Virus record (IMG/VR): IMGVR_UViG_3300042887_000976
Span: 13,673-77,672 of that record
Source: a virus
Length of the DNA: 64,000 nucleotides
Direction: 5' to 3' (one strand)
The position numbers and the translations under genes were made by a program. Under the pieces are notes generated by a model. The model had not been told where the DNA came from. It made no database searches and saw only the letters and a list, made by a program, of their open reading frames with translations. This document shows positions 3,811 to 57,325 of this stretch, piece by piece. Numbering within the stretch: the first letter of the stretch is position 1; every line of letters begins with the position of its first letter.

Positions 3811-4094
3811 CCTGGCCTGCGCCAGATTGATGGAGAATGGGCAGATTCCACGAGTAGACGCTCTGCAACATCGTGGTAGGGGCGAATCATGTGGATGCAG
3901 GGGTCAAGCCCTTGTTCAAACTCTTCGTATTCTCCCTCGGTCATTGGTTCTCCATCATGGGTGATGCATACAGGGGGTCCACAAAAACTGTTTTCCAACC
4001 CGTAAGCCATCCATTCATCAAAATTCATTATGAGTGGTTTTGGTGGACCGTATGGTTCTGAACCAACGCCCCCATGTTCATTAATCTGACTCAC
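3801..4094 (-). CDS. hypothetical protein
   Basis: 97 aa ORF overlapping both neighbours; Cys/His motif CGPPVCITHDG..PCIH. Confidence 0.6.
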   Translation of the reverse strand: MSQINEHGGVGSEPYGPPKPLIMNFDEWMAYGLENSFCGPPVCITHDGEPMTEGEYEEFEQGLDPCIHMIRPYHDVAERLLVESAHSPSIWRRPGWE

Positions 4095-4557
4095 GCCATG
4101 TCCTTTCTGCCTTCGCTAATGCTTGGCTTTCAATTTCCTCAACAAGTACATCCCAACTTTTTAGAACTCTTTCTTCGTTCCATTCAAGTCGGATGGTGTC
4201 GGGTACCGTCAATAGTAGCGTGGGTATACCCATATGCGCAACCTTCGCAACAGCAATTGGGTCAATATCTATGTACCAATTAATTTTGCCGTAAACAGCA
4301 TTAAAAGAAGCAACACGGTCAATCTTTACATCCACACTGTCTTCTAAAACAATGTCTACGGTAGTGGCTTTGTAGCCTTCACGCTTTAACCATTCAAGAA
4401 GAATGGGAGTATTTGTAATGCCTGTAGCCATGATGGCTAACTTGTTGTTGTACCCAGCATTTAGGGCTCCCCATAGTCGGCGCATTTCTTTTCGTGGAAT
4501 ACGAGCACCAATTTCATCACCAGGGGAAGCAATGGCATCAAAATTAATTAGAATCAC
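4081..4557 (-). CDS. hypothetical protein, possible degenerate HAD-like fold
   Basis: N-terminal ILINFDA strand and WYIDIDP motif; coupled to neighbours. Confidence 0.55.
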   Translation of the reverse strand: MILINFDAIASPGDEIGARIPRKEMRRLWGALNAGYNNKLAIMATGITNTPILLEWLKREGYKATTVDIVLEDSVDVKIDRVASFNAVYGKINWYIDIDPIAVAKVAHMGIPTLLLTVPDTIRLEWNEERVLKSWDVLVEEIESQALAKAERTWRESD

Positions 4558-5021
4558 TTGTCGTAAAGACCCATTTCAGTGCGTTGGCGATGCGTATAGT
4601 ATTCGGCGGCAGGGCAGTACATACACACATATTGTCGTTTTTCTTTAGGAATACCAGTTTTACGTCCAATAGTCTTATCGTCATTGCACCAATCAATGCA
4701 ACCCTGACTTGGTCGGTTGTGACGACTAAAACATTTGAGTGCATCAACTTTTAACTCATCTCGGAAGTCACGGATGTAAACATCTTGGTCTTGCAACTCT
4801 CTTTTAAGTGCTGTTTCTACATCTAACTTAGATGCAGTTTCTGGGTCTGTGCGATAGATTAATGCTCTACAGTTCTGAGGGTCGGGTACCTGTGCGTTAT
4901 GTCGGTCACATAGTTCACGCAACTCTTGGTCATATTCAGGTGGTCCATCATACGGACGCATCTTCCACATAACCCCATGGGTTTTGCATACAAGTAGACG
5001 GTCAAAGTCTTTATCAGCCAT
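4554..5021 (-). CDS. hypothetical Cys/His-rich (Zn-binding) protein
   Basis: CKTH, CxxxHxRP..GC, CMYC motifs; AGGAG RBS. Confidence 0.65.
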   Translation of the reverse strand: MADKDFDRLLVCKTHGVMWKMRPYDGPPEYDQELRELCDRHNAQVPDPQNCRALIYRTDPETASKLDVETALKRELQDQDVYIRDFRDELKVDALKCFSRHNRPSQGCIDWCNDDKTIGRKTGIPKEKRQYVCMYCPAAEYYTHRQRTEMGLYDK

Positions 5022-5045
5022 TTTGTGCTCCTAGTAGTTTCTGTA

Positions 5046-5065
5046 AGGTATCTTACATGATACCT
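5046..5065. promoter_or_regulatory. 7-bp inverted repeat overlapping a candidate -10 box (operator-like)
   Basis: AGGTATC-ttacat-GATACCT in the intergenic gap, covering GG-TATCAT on the minus strand. Confidence 0.4.
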
Positions 5066-5082
5066 AGTGGTGTTGTCTACTG

Positions 5083-5280
5083 TTACTGAAGGTGCGATTC
5101 AAAATTTGGGAAGTTTGGTGCTTCTTGAATATTATATTGAATTTGAAGCATGTTTTTGCGAATAGCGGCTGCTGTTGGGTCAACATTGCCACCACGGTTT
5201 GGGGTAAGTGATTTAAACTTGCCATCGCCTGCACCTAGAGTGAGGTCACGATTGCATGAGCGGGATTCATTAACTGCCAT
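5083..5280 (-). CDS. small hypothetical protein
   Basis: 65 aa ORF in tight operon packing. Confidence 0.6.
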   Translation of the reverse strand: MAVNESRSCNRDLTLGAGDGKFKSLTPNRGGNVDPTAAAIRKNMLQIQYNIQEAPNFPNFESHLQ

Positions 5281-5283
5281 AAT

Positions 5284-6813
5284 TTACTTCTTTCCTTTGG
5301 GTTTTGCGGCTGCTTTTTTAGCAGGTGCTTTAGAGGCAACTGACTTTGGGCCTTCAACTGTTTGTGGAATTAAAGTAGTTAAAGGTTTCATTGATGCTTT
5401 ATCATTTAAAGGATTTTTACCCATGACTGGTTTATAGTCTGGGTCACCAATTTTTGGTTTTGGTTTTGCTGGACCATATTTTTTAGCGCCAACTCCACCT
5501 TGCTCGTTAATCTTACGACCCTGAGTCTTGGGAGCACCAATGTTACCTGTAGCAGCAGCAGTTGCTTCTTGAGCAGTAGCATACCCAGACTTAGGACCTT
5601 GAACAGGTTGTGACATTGGTCCTGCTGCTGGCGCTTGTGGACCTGCTGTTTCGGAAAGCCAAGGTCCATTAACACCTTTTTCATTTAATTTTTGACGGGC
5701 TGTGGCAGCCTCAGGACCACCCTTTTCGTCATTAGCATGAGCGTAAAGACCATCTGGCACTTTAGTACGGTTACTTTCGTCAAGTTGACCCATAGGTTGT
5801 GGACCTGATTCAATAGCACCAGCAGGTTGTGGTCCTGCACCAATTGCAGGAGTACCTGGACGCTGTGGACCCGCAACAGGTGTTTGTGGACCTACTGGTG
5901 GAGCACTAGTTTGCTGTCCAACTGGAATTTGTGGGCGACCAGGACCTACTGGAGGAGCACCAATTTGTGGAGGAGTTCCAGGAGGCTGCATCTTTATTGG
6001 TGGCGGTGCTGGTGGAAAAGGAGGTGGCGGTGGTGGGCCATAAATTGGCGGAGTAGGACCTACTGGCGGAGTTGGAGGCGGAGTAGGACCGACTGGAGGA
6101 GTCGGCGGTGGCGGCGGTGGAGTCGGCGTTGTGGGACCAACTGGAGGAGTTGGACTACCACCACCGAATGTACTGTTGTTTCCGCTGAAGGCTGTCTGTC
6201 GTCCTCCACTATTTTTGGATTGAAAGGAGTTATCGTAATCGCCGTTTCCAACATTAGCGCCTCCCATATTACCGTAGACAGTTCCGTAGTTGTCGTTACC
6301 TTGAACCATGGTAATGCCATGTGATGCTAACGCACCACTAAAATCTCCACGCCGACCACGGCGCATACCACGACTATTAGCAGGGGAAGTAATAGATGCA
6401 TTTTGGCTTCGTCCACCACCTGCAACTGGAGGACCCATTAAACCATCGTCTGCCATATCGGAACCATTTCTTGAAGAGGCGGTTGAGCCTGAATTGTCTT
6501 TATCCATTTTACCATCACGTGAGTCTTTGTATTTTTTAGCGGCCCAGCCACCTACGCCACCAACAGTCTTTTCAATGGTATCGTTCAAGCCTGTAAACAT
6601 GTTGTAATGGTTTACACCAGTATCATAATTGGGTCCACCGCCACCGCCACGGACACCCCGAAAGGTAGAAGGTGAACCTGGAGGTGCTTGGTACGTCCCA
6701 GGTTGTCCTGTCTTACGCCACATTTCCCAGTCCATGTGGCTTTGTGGAGCACGCCCTTGCTGTTGCAAGTAGCGGTTAATATCTTTATTTGTATTGAAGT
6801 CTGAATCTGTCAT
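5284..6813 (-). CDS. proline/glycine-rich low-complexity protein
   Basis: 509 aa; PTPPVGPT repeats, poly-Pro tracts, basic APAKKAAAKPKGKK tail. Confidence 0.7.
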   Translation of the reverse strand: MTDSDFNTNKDINRYLQQQGRAPQSHMDWEMWRKTGQPGTYQAPPGSPSTFRGVRGGGGGPNYDTGVNHYNMFTGLNDTIEKTVGGVGGWAAKKYKDSRDGKMDKDNSGSTASSRNGSDMADDGLMGPPVAGGGRSQNASITSPANSRGMRRGRRGDFSGALASHGITMVQGNDNYGTVYGNMGGANVGNGDYDNSFQSKNSGGRQTAFSGNNSTFGGGSPTPPVGPTTPTPPPPPPTPPVGPTPPPTPPVGPTPPIYGPPPPPPFPPAPPPIKMQPPGTPPQIGAPPVGPGRPQIPVGQQTSAPPVGPQTPVAGPQRPGTPAIGAGPQPAGAIESGPQPMGQLDESNRTKVPDGLYAHANDEKGGPEAATARQKLNEKGVNGPWLSETAGPQAPAAGPMSQPVQGPKSGYATAQEATAAATGNIGAPKTQGRKINEQGGVGAKKYGPAKPKPKIGDPDYKPVMGKNPLNDKASMKPLTTLIPQTVEGPKSVASKAPAKKAAAKPKGKK

Positions 6814-6815
6814 TA

Positions 6816-7052
6816 CTATTGACCTGCTTGTGCAGACTTTTCAATTTGGTTAGCAAGAATACTTTGCAAAGTAGATGTGGTGCCATGTTGCTTCAAAAGG
6901 TCAGAGGCGCTTCCCCATGCTTCAGTTTCTGACATACCATGGTTGCGCTGGATATGTTGCGCAAGAATGGCTGTAAGAACATGAGGAGAATGGGTCTCCA
7001 TCAATTTACGAGCCTCTTCATGGTAGTTTGTTTCATTTTCCATTATGCCCAC
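6816..7052 (-). CDS. small hypothetical protein
   Basis: ORF in coupled array; probable start at ATG 7043 (TAATG overlap); internal ILAxxI repeat. Confidence 0.6.
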   Translation of the reverse strand: MGIMENETNYHEEARKLMETHSPHVLTAILAQHIQRNHGMSETEAWGSASDLLKQHGTTSTLQSILANQIEKSAQAGQ

Positions 7053-7348
7053 AATCCTTGCATTGAGTAGCGACTAGAACCTTCAAAGTTGTCTTCCATA
7101 AAACCATTACGGAACATAACTGGAGCACCTGAAACCCAACGGCTATAAGTTGGCATAGTTCTTGGAGTATCAAGTACATCCATTATAGTCATTTCTTGAC
7201 GGTTAAACCCACGGGTTTGTGGAAACAACTGTTGTGGTACAAGCGGACGAATTGCTCTAATTTGTTCTGGGGGTAGCAAATAAGATTGTAAAGCCTGGTC
7301 TACCAGCATCTCTGTATGAGACTGATTGGGCTTGTACGGAACTTGCAT
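7043..7348 (-). CDS. hypothetical protein
   Basis: 101 aa, TAATG-coupled. Confidence 0.65.
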   Translation of the reverse strand: MQVPYKPNQSHTEMLVDQALQSYLLPPEQIRAIRPLVPQQLFPQTRGFNRQEMTIMDVLDTPRTMPTYSRWVSGAPVMFRNGFMEDNFEGSSRYSMQGLWA

Positions 7349-7602
7349 TATTGGATGTCAGCAACAACTTGTGGTGATTGTGAAAGAGATGCAATAATGT
7401 CACGGCGGGTACCCTGCATACGGCTCATTGCACGCATGTCATGGTTAGTTTCTGCAATGCCACCTGGGTCATGGCTATTTGGAATGTTATTTGCATTTAA
7501 AGCATTGTAAGCGCCCAAAGCAGCAGCAAGAACTTGTGGTTCTGCTGCCATCATGTGTGCAATTCTTGCGGGGTTATCCCGCTCGTCAATTCCTCTAGTC
7601 AT
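7348..7602 (-). CDS. small protein with shared N-terminal tag (MTRGIDERDNPAR)
   Basis: ATGA/TAATG coupling; carries the MxRGxDxxx[HN]PxR motif. Confidence 0.7.
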   Translation of the reverse strand: MTRGIDERDNPARIAHMMAAEPQVLAAALGAYNALNANNIPNSHDPGGIAETNHDMRAMSRMQGTRRDIIASLSQSPQVVADIQ

Positions 7603-7799
7603 TGGGGTTCCTTAGGTGTATTAGATGGGTGGGCGGCACGAGAACTTTGTTGTTTTTGTTCCATAATATATTCTGTAACTGCATCGTGCGGTTCAGACGG
7701 ATTAGCAAAGTTAACCCAAAGAACATTAGGAGTATTAACATTCCGCACAACTACTGGGTTGCGCTTAGGATTATTTCGTTCATCACGCCCTCGTGACAT
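7599..7799 (-). CDS. small protein with shared N-terminal tag (MSRGRDERNNPKR)
   Basis: TAATG coupling; motif present. Confidence 0.7.
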   Translation of the reverse strand: MSRGRDERNNPKRNPVVVRNVNTPNVLWVNFANPSEPHDAVTEYIMEQKQQSSRAAHPSNTPKEPQ

Positions 7800-8086
7800 T
7801 ACTGCTCCTCGTTGTCTTTTTGCGCTTCTAAGTGTTTACGCAAATTTGTAAGACGCTCTTTTTCACGTGGGTGAGGAGCGCCATAATCTAAAGTTTGGTT
7901 AATTTCCGCAAAAGTACCTTCACTGATTTCACCTTTTGATGCAAAACGTCCTAAAGCAGTATCATTACCCTGTGACCAGTCACGGGCTACTTGCTGTGGT
8001 CCATCATTAAGTTCAAATTGAGGGGTCGGTTTTGGACGACCTACTTGGCGCTTTGGGTGGTCACGAGTATCTTTTCCACGAGGCAT
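7799..8086 (-). CDS. small protein with shared N-terminal tag (MPRGKDTRDHPKR)
   Basis: Start moved to ATG 8086, which overlaps the upstream TAA and puts the motif at the N-terminus. Confidence 0.75.
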   Translation of the reverse strand: MPRGKDTRDHPKRQVGRPKPTPQFELNDGPQQVARDWSQGNDTALGRFASKGEISEGTFAEINQTLDYGAPHPREKERLTNLRKHLEAQKDNEEQ

Positions 8087-8322
8087 TATTTTGCTCCACA
8101 TCCAACACAAGGAACACGCTTACTAGGGTGGATAGATTCCCTGTCGTGCCACTCCAATGCTTCTCCCATGTCGTCAGTGCAATTGCTACAAAGTGGTCCG
8201 TCTTCGTCTTGACCAGCATTGGCACGATTTTGGTAGTATTCCATATCTGCACCCGTCATCATGAATGATTGACGGTCAACACCACGATTAGGGTGTTTAC
8301 TAGTATCTTCTCCACGAGGCAT
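8086..8322 (-). CDS. small protein with shared N-terminal tag (MPRGEDTSKHPNR) and Zn-ribbon
   Basis: Motif plus CSNC...CVGC. Confidence 0.75.
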   Translation of the reverse strand: MPRGEDTSKHPNRGVDRQSFMMTGADMEYYQNRANAGQDEDGPLCSNCTDDMGEALEWHDRESIHPSKRVPCVGCGAK

Positions 8323-8513
8323 TAGTAATCCTCGTTTTCTTCACGGTTGTCAAAATACTGATTAGTAGCATGCGCTGCTACGCCACCTACAATAGCACCT
8401 ATTGGACCATATCCAGCAGCACCAATAGCAGCACCACCTGCTACTCGCAACATGTTATGTAGTTTGTGATGGTCCATTCCATGTCCATCATCAAAAGACT
8501 TTCTGCGTGCCAT
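8322..8513 (-). CDS. small glycine-zipper-like protein
   Basis: AGGAAIGAAGYGPIGAIVGGVAA; TAATG-coupled. Confidence 0.65.
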   Translation of the reverse strand: MARRKSFDDGHGMDHHKLHNMLRVAGGAAIGAAGYGPIGAIVGGVAAHATNQYFDNREENEDY

Positions 8514-8809
8514 TATTGATTATTCCATCCTAGTTTGCCACCCTCTACCATGCCACCTTGCGTGATGGCTCCACGAATAGCCAAATGGCGAGCATTTTGA
8601 GGTGACTCACCATAACCTCGGTAAGTGCGGTATGATGCACGAGCATTCGCAGCACCTTCGGGATTTAACATAGTTGTTGGTCCTGTGGGATGGGAGTATC
8701 CCTGTGCTCTATAGCCTGCCAAAGTGTCCTTAGACATTCCACGGAACTCACTACGTGGTGTTGAGCGGTGGTTACCACCAACTGAATTTCCTCTATGGTC
8801 AGTAGTCAT
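8513..8809 (-). CDS. small protein with second-type tag (TDHRGNxVG)
   Basis: MTTDHRGNSVGGNHRSTPR; TAATG-coupled. Confidence 0.7.
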   Translation of the reverse strand: MTTDHRGNSVGGNHRSTPRSEFRGMSKDTLAGYRAQGYSHPTGPTTMLNPEGAANARASYRTYRGYGESPQNARHLAIRGAITQGGMVEGGKLGWNNQ

Positions 8810-9204
8810 TAGTAAAAAATACCTTCAGCAGGGTCTTTTGACTCTTTGTATTTTACCGTGGGTGGGTACTCGTAGGGAGAACTGTAGCCCATTGAGTTTT
8901 TACCTGAACGAGCGTCTACTGCTTCAGAAATAGCCGTAGGAATGTGGTCAATACGGTTACCAACATTGTCATCGTCTGGAACGGGTTTGTCAGGGTGGTA
9001 AGGGGTTGAGTAATCAACACCATAATGTGCATCGTCTAGGTAATCGTTTCCTTTGCGGTGCTCATCAATAACTTCCTGTGCGGTGTCTGAATCAATTTTA
9101 TAGTAACGTTGAAGCGCTTGGATAACACGGGGGGTAGGGCGGTGCCCACCATGTGATGTATCAGGGTTTCCTACTGGATTTCCTCTATGGTCAGTTGGCG
9201 GCAT
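8809..9204 (-). CDS. small protein with second-type tag (TDHRGNxVG)
   Basis: MPPTDHRGNPVGNPDTSHGGHRPTPR; TAATG-coupled. Confidence 0.7.
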   Translation of the reverse strand: MPPTDHRGNPVGNPDTSHGGHRPTPRVIQALQRYYKIDSDTAQEVIDEHRKGNDYLDDAHYGVDYSTPYHPDKPVPDDDNVGNRIDHIPTAISEAVDARSGKNSMGYSSPYEYPPTVKYKESKDPAEGIFY

Positions 9205-9464
9205 TAGTAGTGTCCTTTCTTCAGACGCTCTTCTCTAAGGTTATACTCTTCTTCAACATCTTCAGGGTCCCAGGGGTCAAGTACTTCATCTAAGTTAGGG
9301 CGAGGGATACCATGTGGAGGTGCGTCATCTTCATGGCGGATGTTAGACGTATCAGGGCGAGGGATACCATGTGGAGGTGCATCATCATTATCTTGGGTAT
9401 TCGTGATACGTGGGTCAACTGGGCGGCGACCTGGATGGTCTCGTGAATCTTTACCTCTTGGCAT
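9204..9464 (-). CDS. small protein with shared N-terminal tag (MPRGKDSRDHPGR) and internal duplication
   Basis: Motif present; DDAPPHGIPRP occurs twice; apparently leaderless first gene of the array. Confidence 0.75.
   Translation of the reverse strand: MPRGKDSRDHPGRRPVDPRITNTQDNDDAPPHGIPRPDTSNIRHEDDAPPHGIPRPNLDEVLDPWDPEDVEEEYNLREERLKKGHY
9297..9380. repeat. 27-bp exact direct repeat, two copies, period 57 nt
   Basis: agggcgagggataccatgtggaggtgc at 9297-9323 and 9354-9380. Confidence 0.9.
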
Positions 9465-9478
9465 AACTCTATTTTACC
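9465..9478 (-). promoter_or_regulatory. -10 element for a leaderless transcript of the tagged small-gene array
   Basis: GG-TAAAAT-AGAGTT-ATG: -10 box 6 nt before the start codon, no SD. Confidence 0.6.
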
Positions 9479-9970
9479 TTATTTCCACGGCGGTGCTAAT
9501 GATTTAAGAAGAGCACGCCGTTCAGCACTAATCTCTTGAACCTGTTCTTCTCCTTGGCGAGAAGGGATGCCACGAGGACCTACTTTTCCATCATTGGTAA
9601 GACGAACAGGTTCTGCTCCAGGGGGAGCAAATTTAAGACCTTGAGATTCTAATTGAATTCCTGTCCAAAGGTTAAACTCTTCGGGCCAAACGTAGTCACC
9701 AGGGTTGATGCGCTCACCTTTATGGACACCACGGCTGTACTGCCGAGCATTCATACGACTTAATGTTCCAAGAATCTTGTCTTGGCGGCGGTTAGAAGAC
9801 ATGGTGCCAAGGTATCCGTCTGGATACTGTTCTTCTACACCTGTGCGGTACCCCGATAGCAACTGGTCTTTAGAGTTGCGCCAAACTGGAGAAGGCCCCA
9901 TGCTGGCAGCAGTTCCCATACCAGGAGGTTCATTAGCGCTACCCCACTGAGTAAATGTATTAGCAGCCAT
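9479..9970 (-). CDS. hypothetical protein (possible virion protein)
   Basis: 163 aa; YPDGYLGT...YSRGVHKGERI; TAATG-coupled. Confidence 0.65.
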   Translation of the reverse strand: MAANTFTQWGSANEPPGMGTAASMGPSPVWRNSKDQLLSGYRTGVEEQYPDGYLGTMSSNRRQDKILGTLSRMNARQYSRGVHKGERINPGDYVWPEEFNLWTGIQLESQGLKFAPPGAEPVRLTNDGKVGPRGIPSRQGEEQVQEISAERRALLKSLAPPWK

Positions 9971-10110
9971 TACTGTAACCCACCTGCGCTAGGACCACCT
10001 ACAAGACCCCCTTGACCACCACCTACTGTGGAAACGGGACGAGGGGGGCGTGACATAAACTTTTGGTATTTGCCACTAGCGGGTTGACGGTTACGCTTAC
10101 GAGAAGGCAT
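9970..10110 (-). CDS. small basic hypothetical protein
   Basis: Start moved to ATG 10110 (MPSRKRNR...), overlapping the upstream TAA. Confidence 0.5.
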   Translation of the reverse strand: MPSRKRNRQPASGKYQKFMSRPPRPVSTVGGGQGGLVGGPSAGGLQ

Positions 10111-10280
10111 TAATATGAAGTCTTCGGTGGTTCGTGGGACGGGTCTTTCTCCATCTTCCGATATTGTTCGTCTTCCCAAGCGGTCTGTTGTTCTTCTGGA
10201 TTCAACTTTGCGTATACTTTCCCGTACTCGCCATCCATGCCACCACGTTGCGTAATACGTTTTCCGTTATGTGTTGTCAT
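10110..10280 (-). CDS. small hypothetical protein (56 aa, not in ORF track)
   Basis: MTTHNGKRITQRGGMDGEYG...; AAGGA RBS; fills the gap exactly with TAATG coupling. Confidence 0.55.
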   Translation of the reverse strand: MTTHNGKRITQRGGMDGEYGKVYAKLNPEEQQTAWEDEQYRKMEKDPSHEPPKTSY

Positions 10281-10289
10281 AATCAGTCC

Positions 10290-10580
10290 TTACTTAATAA
10301 TTGGTTTAAAAGAAATTGCAGAAATTGTTTCTCCGTCATTGCCTGGGATGTCATCAAACCCAATAACAAAAGATAAATCAATTCCACGTGGGGCAACAAA
10401 GCCACGGGCGATAGCGCAGGCTTTGGCTGCTTGGTTTACTGCTGATGCGCCAATAGCACGCATTTTAGGCATTTGCCCAGCATTAATAGCACGAGCCATG
10501 ATGGAACCTACGGATTGCGGGTTACTAGAACCCGATACCTTCAGAATATCGTCAATGGTGGTGTTCAGTTCTTGTGACAT
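10290..10580 (-). CDS. spoVS: SpoVS-family (Alba-like) protein
   Basis: LKVSGSSNPQSVG...RAIGASAVNQAAKACAIARGFVAPRGIDL...AISF matches the SpoVS consensus. Confidence 0.9.
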   Translation of the reverse strand: MSQELNTTIDDILKVSGSSNPQSVGSIMARAINAGQMPKMRAIGASAVNQAAKACAIARGFVAPRGIDLSFVIGFDDIPGNDGETISAISFKPIIK

Positions 10581-10614
10581 AAAAGACTCCTAGTAGAATA
10601 GTTATACCTTTATT

Positions 10615-10980
10615 TTACTGATAACCAGCCTCATCTAAGAGCCCTGTGAGGTCTTCTAGACGCATCACAACGTATGAATCACCCAATGCTTTTTCCCCCT
10701 TACCAGGGCGTTTAACAACCAACACAGGAACTGCACCACCAAGGCGTTCAGCCTGTTCTACAGTGTCATTAAGCCATTGGCTCAGTTGGAATGCTTTTTG
10801 GTTTTTGCATTGAACCGCCACTTTTCTAAGAGGGCTCTTGCGAGCAATCCCATTGATATCCCCAGTGTCATTGCCACCAGATAATGCAGGACGGTGAGCA
10901 TTGATAAACCCCTTGTTGATTAAGTAGTCCCTTACAGAAACTTCAAACGATGTGCCTTTGGCTTTAGCCTTATTTGACAC
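10615..10980 (-). CDS. Holliday junction resolvase-like PD-(D/E)XK nuclease
   Basis: KAKGTSFE..DTGDI..VQCKN..VVKRPG..YVVM; start moved to GTG 10980. Confidence 0.75.
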   Translation of the reverse strand: MSNKAKAKGTSFEVSVRDYLINKGFINAHRPALSGGNDTGDINGIARKSPLRKVAVQCKNQKAFQLSQWLNDTVEQAERLGGAVPVLVVKRPGKGEKALGDSYVVMRLEDLTGLLDEAGYQ

Positions 10981-11045
10981 GGTAATTTTCCCGTTGCCAA
11001 AGAATAATGACAAGCATTGCGCCAATAAAAAAACCTGCAATAAAA

Positions 11046-11327
11046 CTACTCATTATGGACTACTTCTTTTGTCAGGTTTTTATGAATGTCTAGTATGTGG
11101 GACCACTCTGAGTACCAACGCTTTGCGTTGGCTTCCTCCCTTTTGGCTTCAGTACGCCAAATACCTACTTCTCTACGAGTCACATCTAGTTCAGACCTAA
11201 TCAGTTCTATTTCTGAGATTAAAGACTCAATGTGCTTTTTGTGCTCATCTCGCTCTGAGAGGGCTTGCACTAACTTTTCATTTAAAGATGATGCGGCGCA
11301 TTCATCTACACATACTAAATTAACCAT
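11046..11327 (-). CDS. coiled-coil hypothetical protein
   Basis: 93 aa heptad-rich ORF. Confidence 0.55.
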   Translation of the reverse strand: MVNLVCVDECAASSLNEKLVQALSERDEHKKHIESLISEIELIRSELDVTRREVGIWRTEAKREEANAKRWYSEWSHILDIHKNLTKEVVHNE

Positions 11328-11411
11328 TGTTTTTATTTGTCCTTAAACATTTGTCCAGTAAATGCACCACAGCAAAAGACTGCGGTTACCATAATTATGA
11401 GTGTAAAAAAA

Positions 11412-11576
11412 TCAGCCATAGGATAGCCTTTCTAGTCGTGCAATTTCTGCTTCAAGTTCTCGTACTCTACTGCGTAGATTTACAATTTCCTCAGCAGCAC
11501 GATGAACTATTTCGTTAGCAAAAAGGTCGCTGTAACCAAAACGGTCAAGAAGTTCGTCTACAAGGTCGTAAGTCAT
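11412..11576 (-). CDS. small coiled-coil hypothetical protein (54 aa, not in ORF track)
   Basis: MTYDLVDELL...RAAEEIVNLRSRVRELEAEIARLE; ATGA coupling. Confidence 0.5.
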   Translation of the reverse strand: MTYDLVDELLDRFGYSDLFANEIVHRAAEEIVNLRSRVRELEAEIARLERLSYG

Positions 11577-11764
11577 ACACGCTCCGTAACTTGCACAGAA
11601 ACAATGTGCTTTTTAAATTCACCACACCAGCCATTTATAGGAGATGTTGGAAATCCAGAATTGGTAGTAGTGGAACCAACAGGTGGATACCTACGACACT
11701 CCACCCAATCAGAACCATTAATTGGCATTGCAAATTCGCAAATAATACATGACTTATTGCCCAT
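11573..11764 (-). CDS. small Cys-rich metal-binding protein
   Basis: CxxC...ECRRYPP...FP.....WCGEF pattern common in phages. Confidence 0.65.
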   Translation of the reverse strand: MGNKSCIICEFAMPINGSDWVECRRYPPVGSTTTNSGFPTSPINGWCGEFKKHIVSVQVTERV

Positions 11765-11897
11765 AAAATGACCTTACTTTTTCTTTTAGTTTTTCGTTTT
11801 CTTCTTCTAATTTTTTACAACGTTCAACCCAAAACTTAATAACCCTGCGTTGTTCTGTCAGTTGGTCACTAATCGGTAAATCAGGCATGTGGGTCAT
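11754..11897 (-). CDS. small hypothetical protein (47 aa, not in ORF track)
   Basis: MTHMPDLPISDQLTEQRR...; fills the gap with overlaps on both sides. Confidence 0.45.
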   Translation of the reverse strand: MTHMPDLPISDQLTEQRRVIKFWVERCKKLEEENEKLKEKVRSFYGQ

Positions 11898-12157
11898 TTA
11901 AACTCACCTAAATAAAGTTTAGAGATGTTTGTAAGGTGGTCAATACCACGATTGGTGATTACCCAACCTTTTTTAGTTTCTGTAAGGAGGCCATGTCGGG
12001 TTAAAGTATTAAAAGATTCTTTAACTCTGCTGGGTTTACTAAACTTGTGGGGGAACAATGCCAGAGTCTGTTCAACACTAATTGGGCGTGTACGGTTCAT
12101 ACGAGCGTAGCGAAGTGCAACATGGGTGCCCCCACCATAAGTAAATTTGTCTCTCAT
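11894..12157 (-). CDS. winged-helix-like hypothetical protein
   Basis: FNTLTRHGLL...WVITNRGIDHL wing pattern. Confidence 0.55.
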   Translation of the reverse strand: MRDKFTYGGGTHVALRYARMNRTRPISVEQTLALFPHKFSKPSRVKESFNTLTRHGLLTETKKGWVITNRGIDHLTNISKLYLGEFK

Positions 12158-12645
12158 GCTGAGTACCGTGCCTGCCTGCGCTCTTGAGGAGCAAGGCTAA
12201 TGCGCCTGCTTAACTCACGACTAATTACCTGAGCACCACGTTCACAACGTTCAAAAACAGACTCAACTAGTTTACGGTAAGCACGCTTTTCTGAGTACAA
12301 TTGCTGGGCTTCAATAACCTCAGGTTTTGTGTCTCTACGTGCTTTAGCGAGTGTGACAGTGTCACCTTTTTCTTTGTCACTCCATTGACCGATAAGAGTT
12401 TCTGCTTCAATGACCTTTAAATCATTTGCAGCACGCTCTTCATCAATCTCAGCCAAAACCATATCGGCTTTAGCAAATGAAACCCAGGCCATAAAAAGAG
12501 TATAAAACTCCATAAGTTGGTTGTCTGGAAGTTCATCTAGGTACAATGGAATATCAGGAACGCTACCTTCAGGGCGGTCAGGTAACGAAAACTTCTTAAG
12601 GAAGTCTCCCATGATGGAATGCTTAGGAGTCAGCGGATTGTTCAA
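12154..12645 (-). CDS. helical hypothetical protein, possible recombination mediator
   Basis: Long coiled coil downstream of RecA and Cas4-like genes; start moved to TTG 12645 after GGAAGG. Confidence 0.55.
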   Translation of the reverse strand: MNNPLTPKHSIMGDFLKKFSLPDRPEGSVPDIPLYLDELPDNQLMEFYTLFMAWVSFAKADMVLAEIDEERAANDLKVIEAETLIGQWSDKEKGDTVTLAKARRDTKPEVIEAQQLYSEKRAYRKLVESVFERCERGAQVISRELSRRISLAPQERRQARYSA

Positions 12646-13417
12646 TGTAGTCTTCCTTCCAACAAACTTTTGAATAAGGGCAATATTTGCAAATGCGACT
12701 TGATGAATCTTCTGCAAGAGTCGGTCGCATTGGTGGTATCCCAGAATCTAGCGCCCTAATAACACTTTGACAACCTGCCAAGATGTCTTCAATCAACTCT
12801 GCTTGATACTTAACTGAAAACTCTTTTACGTCCTGATTGGCTTTCCATTCATAAAGGAACACACCTTCATGGATACCAAGACAGTACATATACAAGTTAA
12901 GTTGACGCAGGTGTGTTGGAAAGGGTTGGCGCACCCTCTTCCACATGTCATTCTCAGATGTAGCAGATTTGAATGACTCGTAGTCTTCCATGCGGATAGT
13001 GCCAGCGCCTACGCTCTTAATCTCAAGGATGGCACGACCTTTCTTGTCATTGATGATGCCATCAGCGTGCCCCATAAGGCGATATTCCTCATTAAGGATG
13101 GGTACTTCAACTTGTTCAAGTACACCTGCGTCTGTGAGCCACTTCTGCCACTTAGCGTGGATGGCATGGCCTTCAGCAAAGATGTTGAGTTTCTGAAATG
13201 TAAAGGTCTCACCTTGCTTTTCGTAACCCTTGATGGTGTACCAAGAAGAACGAGGGCACCAATCCTTTTTACAAATCTCCGAAGGGTGAAGATGCAAAGT
13301 ATCACGAGTGCTATTGAGTTGTTCTTTAATAAGTTCTTTTTCAACTACGGGAACAAGACGACCTTTAGAAGTAATCAAATTCTTATAGTTTTTGAGATGC
13401 CATGGTGTGTCTGTCAT
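12623..13417 (-). CDS. Cas4-like PD-(D/E)XK exonuclease
   Basis: CPR, GHAIH, GHADG, LEIKS, QLNLYM, CKYCPYSKVC (Fe-S cysteines). Confidence 0.85.
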   Translation of the reverse strand: MTDTPWHLKNYKNLITSKGRLVPVVEKELIKEQLNSTRDTLHLHPSEICKKDWCPRSSWYTIKGYEKQGETFTFQKLNIFAEGHAIHAKWQKWLTDAGVLEQVEVPILNEEYRLMGHADGIINDKKGRAILEIKSVGAGTIRMEDYESFKSATSENDMWKRVRQPFPTHLRQLNLYMYCLGIHEGVFLYEWKANQDVKEFSVKYQAELIEDILAGCQSVIRALDSGIPPMRPTLAEDSSSRICKYCPYSKVCWKEDYIEQSADS

Positions 13418-13794
13418 TTTAGTTCCTTGTATAAACGTTCCGCTAAGTCTAAAGAGTGTGTATTGCCTGTTGTTACGTAATCATGGTAGAGGTCAAGACA
13501 TCGTTTTTTGTCATCAATTTTTTTATGTTTAAAAACAATGTCCATAGGTTTGTAGTTGTGTGCAAACTTATGATGGAAGTAAACAATTAGGCCTTTACGT
13601 TTTTGCCCAACAACATTAAAAATTTGTTGTTCCTCATGAAGGTTACTCAAAGGACCTGTTATACGACCTGTTGACTTAATGTTTTCTCCATGACTACGCA
13701 GAAACTCAACAAGTTCATCAGCAGTCATACCGTCAGGACAACCAGACAAGATATTTAAAAGATGGTCAACCCTTTTAGTCACTCTGTTCTTCAA
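13414..13794 (-). CDS. hypothetical HTH-like protein
   Basis: GMTADELVE...ITGPLSNL. Confidence 0.5.
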   Translation of the reverse strand: MKNRVTKRVDHLLNILSGCPDGMTADELVEFLRSHGENIKSTGRITGPLSNLHEEQQIFNVVGQKRKGLIVYFHHKFAHNYKPMDIVFKHKKIDDKKRCLDLYHDYVTTGNTHSLDLAERLYKELK

Positions 13795-19413: not shown

Positions 19414-20958
19414 TTACACCTCTGAGTTAGCCATAAACTCTGTTAATGAGCCTACGTTTAGTTCAAACTTACCATGGCTGTCGTACCCTTTGTCAATAAA
19501 CGCACCATTAATTCCACGTTTTTGTTGAAGCATTTCGTACTGCCTTTCTTCAATAGAGCCTTTCATTACGAATGAAGTAATTGTAACGTGGGGGTGTATT
19601 GAAGATAAACGGATAATACGGGCATCCCGTTGGTCTAGTTTTCCAGCAGACCATGGGAGGTCGTAGGAAATGAGGTAGTTGGCGTTCGGTAAGTCCACGC
19701 CATACCCACCTGCGTCTGACGATAAAAAAAGACGGACATTTGGGTCAGTTGCAAACTTCTGTTTAGCAATGTCCCGTTCTTCAGCAGACATTCCTCCCAT
19801 GAATAAAACGCTTTCAGAAACTTTCTGCGTTGCTTCCTGGATAATCCGTAAGTTCTTTTTAAAGAATGAGAATAAAACAACCTTATTATTCGGGTCTTCA
19901 TCTAATACATCCTTAATGTATTCAAGTACTGCGTCTAGTTTAGGACTAGTTGCTGATTTAGTCAACCAACCGTGTGCAACCACATGGCTGGCGTACTCAC
20001 TACCATCAGATGTATTGGGGTCAAGGTACTTTTCTGCGGATTCAAAAACAAGTTGTGGGTTGTCACAAAGCATACGAAGAACTGTAAGTCGGGACATAAT
20101 CTGACCTTGGGCTTCTCCTCCTGCGCCAGTGTTGTAGTGAGCCCACAAGTCAAAACCTTTACCGTATTGGTTAACCGCCGATTGAAGTTCCTGGAGAAGG
20201 TCAGCCGCAATCATGCGGTATGCCTTACCACCTGAGTTATCAAATTGAACTGGAATAACTTGGTTAATAACCTTAGGAAGTTGGTCTTGGATGTCTTCAC
20301 GGGTACGGCGAACCATTACGTCACCAATCGTTTTGTTTAGTTGTTGTAAGTTTCTGTAACGCACGGGTTTGCCGTAACTGTCACGCACAATAAAGGTGTT
20401 ATCAAAGATGTCAAACCGACCAAGAACATTAGGGTTTACAAACTGCATGATAGAAAACAGTTCTTCAGGACGATTTTCAATAGGCTGGCCTGTCAATGCA
20501 AAACGATAATGGCAAGTCTTACCAAGCCGTTTAAGTAACTTAGAACGTTTAGCACTAAACGATTTAATGATAGTGGCTTCATCAATAACCATTGCATCAA
20601 AGGCTGCTTTTTTAAACAATGGTTCATCGTGGATAAGCATCTCAGGATTAATGATTGTGTATTGAGCAGAACGAGATAAACGCCAAAGGGCTTCACGTTC
20701 TTTGGGGGTGCCATCAATAACTACTGCACGAGATGTGGTGAACTTTTTGATTTCACGGAGCCATTGGTATTTTAAAGAAGAGGGAACAACGACAATGACA
20801 CGGTCAATATCTCCAACATCTAAAAGATGCTCAACAGCCGATAGGGTGGTTGGCGTTTTGCCTGCACCCATAACCATTGCAAGAAGGATTTGACCACGGT
20901 CAACCATCTTTTCTTGTGCTTCTTGTTGAAAAGGATAGAGAGTTCCTGTAAATGTCAT
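19414..20958 (-). CDS. SNF2-family helicase
   Basis: MGAGKT, IDEA, LTGQPIEN, GGYGVDL, QRDARIIR. Confidence 0.9.
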   Translation of the reverse strand: MTFTGTLYPFQQEAQEKMVDRGQILLAMVMGAGKTPTTLSAVEHLLDVGDIDRVIVVVPSSLKYQWLREIKKFTTSRAVVIDGTPKEREALWRLSRSAQYTIINPEMLIHDEPLFKKAAFDAMVIDEATIIKSFSAKRSKLLKRLGKTCHYRFALTGQPIENRPEELFSIMQFVNPNVLGRFDIFDNTFIVRDSYGKPVRYRNLQQLNKTIGDVMVRRTREDIQDQLPKVINQVIPVQFDNSGGKAYRMIAADLLQELQSAVNQYGKGFDLWAHYNTGAGGEAQGQIMSRLTVLRMLCDNPQLVFESAEKYLDPNTSDGSEYASHVVAHGWLTKSATSPKLDAVLEYIKDVLDEDPNNKVVLFSFFKKNLRIIQEATQKVSESVLFMGGMSAEERDIAKQKFATDPNVRLFLSSDAGGYGVDLPNANYLISYDLPWSAGKLDQRDARIIRLSSIHPHVTITSFVMKGSIEERQYEMLQQKRGINGAFIDKGYDSHGKFELNVGSLTEFMANSEV

Positions 20959-37119: not shown

Positions 37120-37900
37120 GTGAGACCCAGTCCATGATGATGAGGAGTTCTTCACTGCACTTAGCGCACTGAGTCTTCACCTCCTCCATCTTTGGCCCAG
37201 GAGGGTTGTTGGTGAGCGCTCGTACCAACTTGCTGCGGTCACTTACACCAAGGTGTTTTGCCCATTGTTCCGTATTTGTAGGTTGGTTATCGTCCCATTC
37301 GGAACAACGAGCCAACATCATTGTGTTCTGTTCAGCAGTTGTCTTAGCCTTTTTTGCTACATGTGAACTATCTGCGCCAGTTGGGTAACGTAGTTTAACG
37401 ATAGAACCATCACGCAATTCAACTTCTATTGGAAGTGTGAAATCTTTTTCTGGAAACTCAAATGAAAAATCTTCATCAAGGTTTAGTGTTACAAAGTTAG
37501 TTTCTCCGCAGTTTCCACAAGACACTTCCATTTCACGGAAACGACCGTAGGTTGCTTTCATAGCACCAATAAACAAAAGGTCTCGGTCACCAATCATCAG
37601 TTGGTCAATTAGTCCTTGATTTTTTGCAATGGGTACATCCCCAATAGTTACAACTGCTCGTTTAAGTAAAGCACTCATATAATCACTATAAACCATGTCG
37701 GATTTTGTAGTTAAAGAAACAATGGCTTCTTCATCTTCTCCGTTTAACTCACGAATAATTGCATTTTGCAACCACTCGTCTTCATGTTTTATTCCACGCA
37801 TTAGTTTTACAGACGCTGGAGGCGCTGAACCCATACGTGGGGCTGAATCTTTAATTGCTTCGTTAGCGGCTGATACCACTGATTCTGAAATATTTGACAT
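37106..37900 (-). CDS. tail/baseplate assembly chaperone (T4 gp26-like)
   Basis: IRELNGEDEE, GDRD.L, CGNCG, LRYPTG, CAKC; lies between tube and tape measure. Confidence 0.75.
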   Translation of the reverse strand: MSNISESVVSAANEAIKDSAPRMGSAPPASVKLMRGIKHEDEWLQNAIIRELNGEDEEAIVSLTTKSDMVYSDYMSALLKRAVVTIGDVPIAKNQGLIDQLMIGDRDLLFIGAMKATYGRFREMEVSCGNCGETNFVTLNLDEDFSFEFPEKDFTLPIEVELRDGSIVKLRYPTGADSSHVAKKAKTTAEQNTMMLARCSEWDDNQPTNTEQWAKHLGVSDRSKLVRALTNNPPGPKMEEVKTQCAKCSEELLIIMDWVSLLFS

Positions 37901-37924
37901 TTTATTCTCCTATTTGTTAATTTT

Positions 37925-44662: not shown

Positions 44663-44700
44663 TTTGACTCCTAGTTTATGTAACGTAATTGTTGTGCTGA

Positions 44701-44726
44701 AGGGAGGGTCTTAAGGGACCCTCCCT
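44701..44726 (-). terminator. GC-rich hairpin after the major capsid gene (terminator or mRNA stabiliser, no U-tract)
   Basis: AGGGAGGGTC-6nt-GACCCTCCCT, 10-bp perfect stem. Confidence 0.65.
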
Positions 44727-44756
44727 CCGACATCTTAGTAGATTGCAGGCTCCTTA

Positions 44757-52893: not shown

Positions 52894-54447
52894 TCAACGG
52901 AAAAAAGGATTATCAGCCACCAAAATGGTCGGCATCGTATCTTGCGTAGTCATTTGGCAAGCAATCGCCAAACTGTCGGGGTAGTCATCAAATGCACCCT
53001 TTTCGTCAGGAGCCGCCGCAAGTAAATAAGGTCCACGATAAATCTTTTCAAGGTCAGACATTTGCTGGTTAAAACGTTTCCAGGTTCGGATTCTACGGGC
53101 TTTAGAATGACCAGGAATTACAAGTTGGTCACGCTGAATAAGTTCTGTTAGGTGCACCCAACGTTCATTCTGATTCTTGGCATCTGAGGTAACCGCAAGA
53201 ACTTCAATGTCAGGCAGAAGCAGTTGTAGACGTTCTGCGACAGCACCACCGACACCCTGAGAGTCCACACCAATTCTCATACAATCGTAGTTGCGCAAGA
53301 AATCAATAATCTGGAAATACTGAGATTCCCATTCCTCGTTGTTAATCTCAAGCCAATTGAGAACACGATGCTCGTAAAAGCCAAATGGGTCTGGATGGTC
53401 CCAATCAACCCAAACAACGGTAACTACCGTGGAGTCATTTGAACGGGCTACGTCAATACCAGCCACAACAGGAGTACGCCACCATTGCTTTACAACGTTC
53501 ATGGAGGCATCGTACATACGGTCTAGGCGCTCCTCAGTAACAAACATACCCTTTTCAAGAATCCAACGATTCATGTAGGACATCTGGAATTCGTCTGAGT
53601 CTTCTCCAATACGGAGTTTTTCTTTAGAAATGAAGTTTAGGTAGTTCTTGTTGTATTTAGCCGCTACCTTCCAGTCATACTCAAAGTGTTGCTGGCGCTT
53701 TGATTTACCGCCTACAGACCTACGCTTGTTATATTGAATCATTTTATAAAAGTAAGACTTGTAACGGGTAGCGGTACCAGTAAGGCAGATAGAACCGTTG
53801 TTGAACGCCAACATGGGTTTGATTGACTTAGCAATCATGGTCTCATCGGCTTCCTGAGCCTCGTCAATAAGGACAAAGTGGTAGGTCTTAGATTCAATTT
53901 TTGCCTTGGGGTTACAGGTTTGCATACGGCAGATAGAGCCAGCATTCTTTAGGCTGATTAGTTTACCCTTACCACGAGAGCCACCAGAGGCTGCTTTGTC
54001 GTCAATCTCAGGGTCAAGTAAAAACTGAAGTGCATGTTCACTTGTCAGTTTTGAAACGATACGACCAAAGACGGTATCGGCTTGGTCTTCAGTTGGCGCA
54101 AATACCCCAACCCAAAAGCCCTTGTCAAACTTAGAAAGCCATGTTGGGTAGACCTTAGCCAACTTAGGAAGGATAACCATGAGGGACGCACAGACATTAG
54201 AAAGTACTTCTGACTTACCTGACTGGCGGGTTGCGATGACTGTGATTTCTTCACCGTCACCAATAACAATAGATTCAATTAAACGGTAAGCAATGGGAAT
54301 CTGATAAGGAAATAACTCAACGTCACAGAATTCTTCTGTAAAGATAATTAACCTTTTAACTAGGTTGTCAAGAAACTCGGCGGAGGTTTCATCAAGGTCG
54401 TCCGCTTGCTCGTATTCTTCAATTTCTGATTCATCAAGTACTGTCAC
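52894..54447 (-). CDS. terL: terminase large subunit
   Basis: FPYQ, TRQSGKS Walker A, IDEAQ Walker B, TGT, GIDVAR..D, GVD..GVG, DD.PDS. Confidence 0.92.
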   Translation of the reverse strand: MTVLDESEIEEYEQADDLDETSAEFLDNLVKRLIIFTEEFCDVELFPYQIPIAYRLIESIVIGDGEEITVIATRQSGKSEVLSNVCASLMVILPKLAKVYPTWLSKFDKGFWVGVFAPTEDQADTVFGRIVSKLTSEHALQFLLDPEIDDKAASGGSRGKGKLISLKNAGSICRMQTCNPKAKIESKTYHFVLIDEAQEADETMIAKSIKPMLAFNNGSICLTGTATRYKSYFYKMIQYNKRRSVGGKSKRQQHFEYDWKVAAKYNKNYLNFISKEKLRIGEDSDEFQMSYMNRWILEKGMFVTEERLDRMYDASMNVVKQWWRTPVVAGIDVARSNDSTVVTVVWVDWDHPDPFGFYEHRVLNWLEINNEEWESQYFQIIDFLRNYDCMRIGVDSQGVGGAVAERLQLLLPDIEVLAVTSDAKNQNERWVHLTELIQRDQLVIPGHSKARRIRTWKRFNQQMSDLEKIYRGPYLLAAAPDEKGAFDDYPDSLAIACQMTTQDTMPTILVADNPFFR

Positions 54448-54462
54448 GTATTACAGCATACA
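54448..54462 (-). promoter_or_regulatory. -10 element for leaderless terL transcript
   Basis: TATGCT, 7 nt, GTG start; no SD. Confidence 0.5.
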
Positions 54463-54552
54463 CGAAGGGCGAAGTCGGGGGCCCCACACAGGAGGGAGAG
54501 AAGTGGGACCCCCTAGAAGACTCGGTGGAAAGGGAACACCGAAATCTTCGTT
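54462..54552 (-). ncRNA. putative twin-hairpin small RNA with CU-rich loops
   Basis: Hairpin 54549-54516 (loop UUCCCUUUC) and hairpin 54513-54477 (loop UUCUCUCCCUCCUGU); G-U pairs favour the minus strand; promoter directly upstream. Confidence 0.55.
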
Positions 54553-54558
54553 CTTGTC

Positions 54559-54589
54559 ATACTAGCATTTAGGTATACCTATTTGTCAA
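54559..54589 (-). promoter_or_regulatory. promoter with palindromic operator-like spacer
   Basis: TTGACA (54589-54584), 19 nt, TAGTAT with extended TG; perfect palindrome TAGGTATACCTA at 54570-54581. Confidence 0.55.
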
Positions 54590-54806
54590 TGCTTCTATTA
54601 GAAATTTCTTCCCAAAGGTCGTTGAGGACATCCAGTGCCTCGTTTACCTGCTCAGGAGACTTGTCCTTATAACGCCAGCCATCGTAAGCCATACCTACGC
54701 TCATTAGCGTAGTATCCATCCATGAAAGAAGTGATGGGGTATCTAACTTTTTAATGCGTGGGTGAAGTTCCTTGGTGGGTGCAGTGCGCTTCCAAATCAT
54801 TACCAT
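54579..54806 (-). CDS. hypothetical protein
   Basis: 75 aa helical ORF. Confidence 0.6.
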   Translation of the reverse strand: MVMIWKRTAPTKELHPRIKKLDTPSLLSWMDTTLMSVGMAYDGWRYKDKSPEQVNEALDVLNDLWEEISNRSIDK

Positions 54807-55216
54807 GCTCCGATTTCCGTAGGGGCTGTGTCCATCAACCTACCACCTACAACGGATAATTCACCATCTATAGAGTTTGTGTAATGCTGTTTATGACAAA
54901 TACCAATTTGGAATGTGCGTTTCCACAAGTTTAAATGAAGACCTGTACCTACACGCCATGGTTCATCAATCTGCTTCATAAATCCAATACTTGCAAAGCG
55001 TGTGCCTTTAGGGACATAGTCACGAGTAATCCAATAAACAGGACCAACAACTTGCAGGATGTTGAGTGTGTCTTTTAAGACAATGCGCCCAAATGTATTA
55101 GCGGTAATGACACAAAGCCAAATACCTTGAGAACCCCAAAGAATAAATGCTACGGGTGATAGTAGGAATGATGCAACAAAAAGGCTCAGTGAGCCATAAC
55201 CAATTAACTTTTTCAT
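54800..55216 (-). CDS. membrane-associated hypothetical protein
   Basis: N-terminal hydrophobic segments; EPWR.G.G. Confidence 0.55.
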   Translation of the reverse strand: MKKLIGYGSLSLFVASFLLSPVAFILWGSQGIWLCVITANTFGRIVLKDTLNILQVVGPVYWITRDYVPKGTRFASIGFMKQIDEPWRVGTGLHLNLWKRTFQIGICHKQHYTNSIDGELSVVGGRLMDTAPTEIGAW

Positions 55217-57158: not shown

Positions 57159-57290
57159 TTACTCTTCGTTATCAGTACTTGGGGCTACTTGGAGTTTCTG
57201 TAATGCTGCCTTGTAAGCGATGTTTTCAAGGGTAAGGCGTTTTACTTCTTCAAGTAGGCCATTGATAAGGTCGTCAGTTTGTAGTTCCAT
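57159..57290 (-). CDS. small coiled-coil protein (43 aa, not in ORF track)
   Basis: MELQTDDLINGLLEEVKRLTLEN...; AAGGAG RBS and TGTATACT -10 upstream. Confidence 0.55.
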   Translation of the reverse strand: MELQTDDLINGLLEEVKRLTLENIAYKAALQKLQVAPSTDNEE

Positions 57291-57325
57291 TTAAGGCTCC
57301 TTTGTTATGTTGTAAGTATACATAT

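Follow-up and report, generated by a model that had tools for sequence, protein, structure and literature searches.

We found that the gap upstream of terL, the gene for the terminase large subunit (TerL), in a lake phage carries a twin-hairpin element that is under selection as RNA on the gene-sense strand. The gap, 131 nt between a 75-aa open reading frame (ORF) and terL when read on the minus strand, appears to encode a structured RNA of about 75 to 90 nt made up of two adjacent stable hairpins, and related lake phages of about 13 lineages have the element at the same site. The structure, its strand, the conservation of the loops, the promoter in the clade of the analysed phage and the terminator context can all be read directly from the sequences compared. 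With moderate confidence, we take the element to be a small RNA with a terminator end, or an RNA from the 3' end of an mRNA, whose loops would pair with Shine-Dalgarno (SD)-like sequences as those of 6C RNA do. A boundary and terminator role combined with a 6C-like base-pairing role is its most likely function.

The window, by which we mean the whole 64-kb stretch of DNA analysed here, is the final part of a 77.7-kb IMG/VR virus record; its G+C content is about 44% and its genes lie nearly all on the minus strand. The phage record is present in many lake-water metagenomes, and all 20 matching assemblies derive from lake-water DNA. Two WhiB-family genes were found in the record (G000:C1: 11241-11453, plus strand, 64.8 bits, and 13584-13778, minus strand, 46.2 bits), the second of which extends into positions 1-106 of the window. 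WhiB genes are a marker of actinobacterial phages. The closest cultured relatives of the TerL protein are those of Streptomyces phages (46% identity to TerL of Streptomyces phage BRock). The two WhiB genes, these TerL relatives and the lake-water occurrence point to a freshwater actinobacterium as the putative host, which would use SD sequences. A search of bacterial genomes with the TerL sequence gave a single relative, a 16-kb contig with 75% identity (L294, PCAM01000041.1), in which the element is absent. This contig comes from a metagenome-assembled genome labelled Chloroflexota NP132; with WhiB genes in the window's phage, a phage contig put into the wrong bin is more probable than a clue to the host.

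Homologues of the 75-aa ORF precede terL in most relatives, whether the RNA element is present or absent, and neither this ORF nor a 138-aa ORF also lying upstream matched any family in Pfam, PHROGs or Atlas. Comparison of the region with GenBank phages by blastn gave no DNA match; in Streptomyces phage BRock, the 350-nt gap before terL has neither a twin hairpin nor a match to the covariance model described below. The sequence-only reading from which this analysis started had called the gap the largest non-coding one. It is among the largest, but probably not the largest, as the gap at 57159-57325 measures 167 nt, provided that a 43-aa ORF located in it is not genuine, and the ranking rests on crude gene calls.

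The two hairpins quoted in that reading are present on the minus strand of the window exactly as written (Table 1), separated by two unpaired bases. Their 73-nt core folds with -37.7 kcal/mol (z = -5.0; none of 200 shuffles equalled it), each loop is unpaired to 90% or more across the ensemble, and the hairpins survive folding with 310 nt of context. No other hairpin with a large pyrimidine loop was found across the 64-kb window. A palindromic hairpin of 12 bp with a 6-nt loop lies at 44699-44728 (minus strand), in the gap after the probable capsid gene, a 359-aa ORF preceded by the strongest of the GGAGG sites; this hairpin is likely a terminator or stabiliser. Two ORFs overlapping the twin hairpin were considered and rejected. 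A 15-codon ORF over hairpin 1 (54560-54513), as a leader peptide, is not conserved and has no start codon in L009, and loop lengths of 9, 10 and 12 nt disrupt its frame; a plus-strand ORF of 66 aa (54365-54565) was set aside on the same grounds.

Table 1. Features around the twin hairpin in the window, and copies of the 18-nt loop-1 unit standing atop longer hairpins in other contigs
Feature	Position	Strand	Remarks
terL, terminase large subunit	52894-54447	minus	517 aa; GTG start without SD; Pfam Terminase_6C; PHROG phrog_2, 3.3e-27
terL -10 TATGCT, leaderless promoter	54455-54460	minus	7 nt before the GTG at 54447
Hairpin 2	54477-54513	minus	11 G+C-rich pairs; 15-nt loop UUCUCUCCCUCCUGU at 54502-54488
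Hairpin 1	54516-54549	minus	12 pairs, one bulge; loop UUCCCUUUC at 54536-54528
Extended -10 TGc-TAGTAT	54559-54567	minus	hexamer ends 9 nt ahead of hairpin 1
75-aa ORF upstream of terL	54579-54806	minus	stop codon 54581-54579
-35 hexamer TTGACA, candidate RNA promoter	54584-54589	minus	within the last codons of the 75-aa ORF; kept in L002-L011
18-nt unit	L303:5346-5363		atop longer hairpin
18-nt unit	L305:2016-2033		atop longer hairpin
18-nt unit	L306:7319-7336	minus	atop longer hairpin
18-nt unit	L308:7130-7147	minus	atop longer hairpin
18-nt unit	L314:1459-1476		atop longer hairpin
18-nt unit	L317:5573-5590		atop longer hairpin

To follow the element in relatives, we searched IMG/VR with TerL and obtained about 290 loci, among which the sequence upstream of terL takes 103 distinct forms. 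The carriers were the window's phage with L002-L008, and L009, L011, L012, L013/L014, L016, L017, L108, L019, L139, L049, L060 and L253. When twelve lineages were folded singly, each gave the same architecture (z from -5.0 to -9.8); these single-sequence folds are independent of the model-fitted alignment used below. A triple hairpin was seen in L049 and L060, the extra one preceding the twin (L049:2845-2875, L060:2841-2875), and this third hairpin also has a pyrimidine loop in L049 (UUAUCCCUUC).

MAFFT alignments of all variants were structurally poor and were replaced by an alignment fitted to a covariance model, which was built from a five-sequence seed with a hand-written structure and by which the remaining sequences were aligned. 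In the window and the loci searched, the model matched this site alone, on the sense strand and once per genome. In the model-fitted alignment, which includes two partial antisense rows and in which pair counts are biased towards the model structure, 94.4% of cells pair (66.3% in shuffles) and 26 of the 29 pairs have changes on both sides (11 of 13 in hairpin 1 and 15 of 16 in hairpin 2). The covariation score was 0.61, against 0.19 for shuffles and 0.08-0.13 for slid partners. Compensatory base changes, which the sequence-only reading had named as a check on its hairpins, are thus abundant in relatives. Across the relatives, the stems contain 27 G-U pairs and no A-C pair, and the sense strand folds better than the antisense strand by 3.0 kcal/mol on average. 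The presence of G-U without A-C pairs, together with the greater stability of the sense strand, indicates that the selected object is an RNA of the gene strand and not a DNA cruciform.

In a TerL tree, 21 of the 22 carriers fell in one clade of 27 rows (SH-aLRT 92), within which protein divergence reaches about 20%, and one carrier (L139) lay outside it. This clade also contains six rows without the element, in two groups, and their placement suggests at least two putative losses. Since six phages within the carrier clade lack it, the element is dispensable.

We next consider where the RNA would begin and end. The window, L003, L009 and L011 all keep the TTGACA hexamer and the extended -10 (TGn-TAnnnT) at equal distance from hairpin 1, with diverged spacers; the spacer between the hexamers in the window is long, at 19 nt. 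The composite pattern TTGACA plus TGnTAnnnT, which is retained here throughout L002-L011, occurs three times in the window against 0.36 expected, the other two matches being at 19466-19496 (minus strand) and 37894-37923 (plus strand). From the promoter spacing, we infer a transcript start near 54552 (within 2 nt), and a separate RNA beginning near this position is likely in the window's clade. The candidate promoter is conserved in the window's clade only, so that a promoter-driven RNA, as proposed in the sequence-only reading, would apply to that clade. A TAnnnT sequence lies 5-9 nt 5' of hairpin 1 in L253, L019 and L108 (the distance in L108 was judged by eye), and no well-placed -10 was found in L139, L049 or L060. 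In at least four lineages (L013, L014, L016 and L017), the stop codon of the upstream gene adjoins hairpin 1 and leaves no room for a promoter, and therefore the RNA in these lineages would be formed by the upstream mRNA at its 3' end. The element would then exist in two forms, as a gene of its own or as a 3' untranslated region (UTR).

At the other end, a U-tract comes directly after hairpin 2 in L011, L013, L014, L016, L017, L139, L049 and L253 (6-8 U among 10 nt), and the tails in L060 and L108 are U-rich as judged by eye. Hairpin 2 thus has the form of a canonical terminator in most relatives, so that the element would also mark an operon boundary. In the window, the tail (GACUUCGCCC) is U-poor, two of its first 10 nt being U, and without a U-tract it is uncertain that transcription ends at hairpin 2 there; a terminator scan called neither hairpin. 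We place the putative 3' end of the RNA at hairpin 2. The proposal that terL has a separate leaderless -10 of its own was supported by the relatives, since the pattern TAnnnT-N5-8-[AG]TG, without an SD, occurs in 82 of the 103 unique upstream regions against a background of 3.6%; the other 21 do not have the pattern, and in several of these the upstream stop codon adjoins or overlaps the terL start. Such a leaderless promoter makes it plausible that the element acts in cis by holding off transcription from upstream.

A role confined to cis, in which the element is an operon boundary that terminates the upstream genes, protects the 3' end of their mRNA from exonucleases and shields the terL promoter while the loops do nothing in trans, is a rival that we regard as possible, though rather unlikely. 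The element is always located downstream of the preceding gene's stop codon and ahead of the terL -10, with 19-39 nt from the end of hairpin 2 to the start of terL. U-tracts follow it in most lineages (at least six U in 10 nt in eight of them), and the element abuts the stop codon in L013, L014, L016 and L017 without room for a promoter. A leaderless gene requires a start site of its own, and relatives without the element join the upstream gene directly to the terL promoter. However, a boundary of this kind leaves unexplained why fixed loops stand beside rewritten stems, why these loops are 9-20 nt of nearly pure pyrimidine, why a promoter of consensus type starts a few bases ahead of hairpin 1 in the window's clade, and why hairpin 2 of the window has been conserved after loss of the U-tract.

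Loop 1 in relatives is UUUCCUCCUUUC, UUCUCCUUUC or UCCCCUUUC, the first of which is invariant in L013, L014, L016, L017 and L108 despite their differing stems, and the GUG/CAC closing pairs are conserved together with the loop. Loop 2 retains CCCUCCUGU across the window's clade and contains CACCUCC(U) in L016 and L108. At least one loop of every lineage keeps CCUCC or CCUUUC. The pyrimidine-rich character that the sequence-only reading had singled out also persists in relatives, in which loops are 81-100% pyrimidine except for the terminator loops of L049, L060 and L253. Loop lengths are 9 and 15 nt in the window and 9-20 nt in relatives, with three of 7-11 nt (L139, L049, L253). Efficient intrinsic terminators have short loops (about 3-8 nt), and the loops of the element are long for plain terminators.

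We compared the loops with the 3' tail of actinobacterial 16S rRNA, which we take to be GGAUCACCUCCUUUCU. The longest runs common to the loops and this presumed tail are 6-9 nt, and loop 1 of five lineages is identical to its 3' end over 9 nt. Taking the best loop of each lineage, these matches are singly modest against composition-matched shuffles (p = 0.013-0.33), and for this reason the argument for likeness to the anti-SD sequence rests on recurrence of the motifs across lineages and on their invariance beside changing stems.

In the reading that we prefer, a boundary combined with a base-pairing RNA, hairpin 1 would present a loop that copies the 16S rRNA 3' tail, with the core CCUUUC or CCUCCUUUC, and hairpin 2 would end the RNA and usually present a second pyrimidine-rich loop, often with CCUCC (within CCCUCCUGU in the window's phage). 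A sigma-A-type promoter would give rise to a separate small RNA in the window's clade, and in other clades the RNA would form the 3' end of the mRNA from the genes before it. By analogy with 6C RNA, the open loops may pair with purine-rich, SD-like sites in mRNAs and so block ribosome loading without a chaperone, and the module as a whole would insulate the leaderless terL promoter from transcription arriving from upstream. Accumulation of the RNA, its action in trans and its choice of targets are inferred parts of this scheme. Actinobacterial hosts have no Hfq and have many leaderless mRNAs.

The best-matching sites predicted in the window's phage are the ribosome-binding sites (RBSs) of its own early genes (ACAGGAGG). 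This sequence has eight copies on the sense strand and one on the other strand, and all eight are RBSs of small early genes located at positions 2469-13213 of the record (G000:C1, minus strand), just outside the start of the window. Three further early genes use GAGGAGG, two of them as GAGGAGGG. By our own count, loop 2 is predicted to pair with all 8 bases of ACAGGAGG and the 16S tail with 6, and the calculated loop 2 duplex is stronger than that of the 16S tail at both ACAGGAGG and GAGGAGGG sites. A loop 2 duplex that reaches or exceeds -12 kcal/mol in strength is predicted for 9 of the 26 early start regions and for 4 of the 96 other ones. In G001, the other near-complete relative (79 kb), its own loops bind the start regions worse than foreign loops do, and its early RBSs are of another type (UAAGGU or GAAAGG). 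Target prediction, another check named in the sequence-only reading, thus gave a match to early RBSs in the window's phage but found no support in G001, in a comparison of two genomes. The match to ACAGGAGG may be due to chance or specific to the lineage, and we treat predicted early-gene targeting as a lead from one genome. The further idea that leaderless phage mRNAs escape repression is weak, as most genes of this phage have SD sequences, the likely capsid gene with its GGAGG among them, and as loop 2 is most strongly complementary to the RBSs of the phage's own early genes. Pairing of loop 2 with the 3' end of the upstream ORF, seen in L013 and L014, was rejected, as it involves one apparent compensatory pair and is absent in L016 and L017.

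The exact 18-nt unit GUG-UUUCCUCCUUUC-CAC was found in 17 viral contigs, 11 of which are outside the family of the window's phage. In most of these 11, which are unrelated phages with 42-62% G+C, the stem continues past GUG/CAC, so that the units are real hairpins; the six copies given in Table 1 come from contigs of 49-62% G+C. Their contexts are varied: ahead of a block of regulator, resolvase and helicase genes; between virion structural and tail-chaperone genes; upstream of a different TerL gene, about 870 nt away; after an RNA ligase gene; and after a transposase gene. The unit may be a modular anti-SD-loop hairpin common to phages, judging from these occurrences. Matches of the 18-mer in metagenome contigs were rejected as a sign of spread, because the 33 matches are close to chance by a rough estimate and many are strong RBSs of the opposite strand.

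Combining these leads, one could picture the RNA as a timing device that mimics the 16S tail. Loop 2 (CCUCCUGU) would outpair the ribosome at ACAGGAGG sites exclusive to early genes, build-up of the RNA would stop early protein synthesis, making it an RNA counterpart of the T4 protein RegB, the leaderless terL would be spared, and the GUG-UUUCCUCCUUUC-CAC hairpins in unrelated phages would represent a widespread, uncatalogued class of translation-control RNA. We consider this full scheme distinctly unlikely.

The likeness to the 16S tail could also mean that the loops are a decoy for a factor that recognises this tail or pyrimidine loops, such as an RNA-binding protein, S1, Rho or an anti-SD ribonuclease or toxin, and that mRNA is not the partner. 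The 9 nt of the 16S 3' end in loop 1 of five lineages and CACCUCC(U) in loop 2 of L016 and L108 would suit such a decoy, as would the conservation of the GUG/CAC closing pairs along with the loop, the recurrence of the 18-nt stem-loop unit as a hairpin in unrelated phage contigs, and the failure to find co-evolution of loops and early RBSs in G001. Yet the loops vary between clades more than expected for the site of a single protein, and the candidate partners are hypothetical; we judge a decoy improbable.

The order of promoter, two hairpins and terL in the window's clade recalls a regulatory leader of terL and the late operon, in which transcripts from the TTGACA promoter run into the hairpins, and these would control read-through to the packaging and structural genes by attenuation or put-like processive antitermination. 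The put RNAs of HK022 are likewise twin hairpins directly after a promoter, and the weak U-tail in the window makes read-through plausible. However, terL lacks an SD and is served by a conserved leaderless promoter downstream of the hairpins, so that its translation from a read-through transcript would be poor; most lineages have a strong terminator and no promoter; and a leader does not explain the conservation of the loops. A leader role is thus very improbable. A packaging signal acting at the DNA level, either pac or a cos-associated cruciform beside the terminase gene, is hardly credible, because even though the site adjoins terL and 5 of 80 related contigs end less than about 150 nt upstream of terL (slightly above a rough estimate for evenly spread ends), the stems, with 27 G-U and no A-C pairs, work on one strand only, as RNA, stability is greater on the sense strand, a role for pyrimidine loops in DNA is not obvious, and strain variation at this variable site can also break contigs. 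The contig ends in question lie 7-151 nt upstream of terL in L012 (within hairpin 1), L025, L038, L048 and L054, and could mark the termini of the genome or places where strain variation broke the assembly.

We also compared the element with known RNA families. The sequence-only reading had pointed to the actinobacterial 6C RNA and the alphaproteobacterial cuckoo RNAs as models, and membership in either family was not borne out. The window scored 24.8 bits against the 6C model (RF01066), for which the gathering cut-off is 47 (E = 0.98 when 1.3 kb was searched, 0.014 for the genome), and none of eleven loci from relatives matched 6C at E up to 10. When positions 53900-55200 were scanned with all 4227 families of Rfam, the matches at E up to 10 were 6C and three chance ones to snoRNAs; no family reached its curated score in the whole window, which also contains no tRNA. 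The element thus matches no Rfam family and is uncatalogued there. In the literature searched, we found no report of a 6C-like or anti-SD RNA encoded by an actinophage, and the C-rich-loop RNAs that mask RBSs (6C, RoxS, cuckoo) are known from bacterial chromosomes. As lake phages that are abundant and form a broad clade have conserved it with covariation, the element is a solid candidate for a phage-encoded regulator of translation.

By design, 6C RNA is the closest known RNA. It is also named B11 in mycobacteria and is the product of a chromosomal gene of high-G+C Gram-positive bacteria. Both RNAs comprise a pair of hairpins placed side by side, about 75 nt altogether, and this pair is present in all lineages of the element; the window aligns to the full 6C model (positions 1-75). 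Both have unpaired, C-containing pyrimidine loops in an actinobacterial setting without Hfq, and by analogy the loops of the element are proposed to pair directly with G-rich mRNA sites. Binding of mRNAs by the C-rich loops of 6C RNA needs no chaperone, and growth stops when this RNA is overexpressed (PMC6486639). The element differs from 6C RNA in that its loops are U-rich and anti-SD-like (CCUCC, CCUUUC), whereas 6C has runs of six C; the loops of the element bear CCC, CCUCC or CCCUCC inside U-rich tracts, with long C-runs in L139 alone. It is also encoded by phages and was seen in phage contigs only, is fixed beside terL and doubles as a terminator.

The cuckoo or alpha-r14 RNAs (CcsR, NfeR1), RoxS/RsaE, LhrC and Staphylococcus aureus RNAIII resemble the element in having CCUCC or UCCC loops able to mask an RBS, and more than one such loop per RNA. 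They have no similarity to it in sequence or model and belong to hosts of another phylum, whereas the element is borne by phages and is derived from a 3' UTR in some clades. With intrinsic terminators, the element shares a G+C-rich stem in hairpin 2 that closes a transcription unit and is followed by a U-tract in most relatives; it differs from them in the long loops of conserved sequence, in the preceding hairpin without a U-tract and in the missing U-tract of the window. A further comparison is with RegB of phage T4, an endoribonuclease aimed at GGAG of the SD sequences of early genes. This is a functional analogy only: both would act on early SD sequences and shut down early translation, RegB as a protein nuclease and the element as a masking RNA. 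If the predicted early-gene targeting is true, the element would provide an RNA-based early shut-off.
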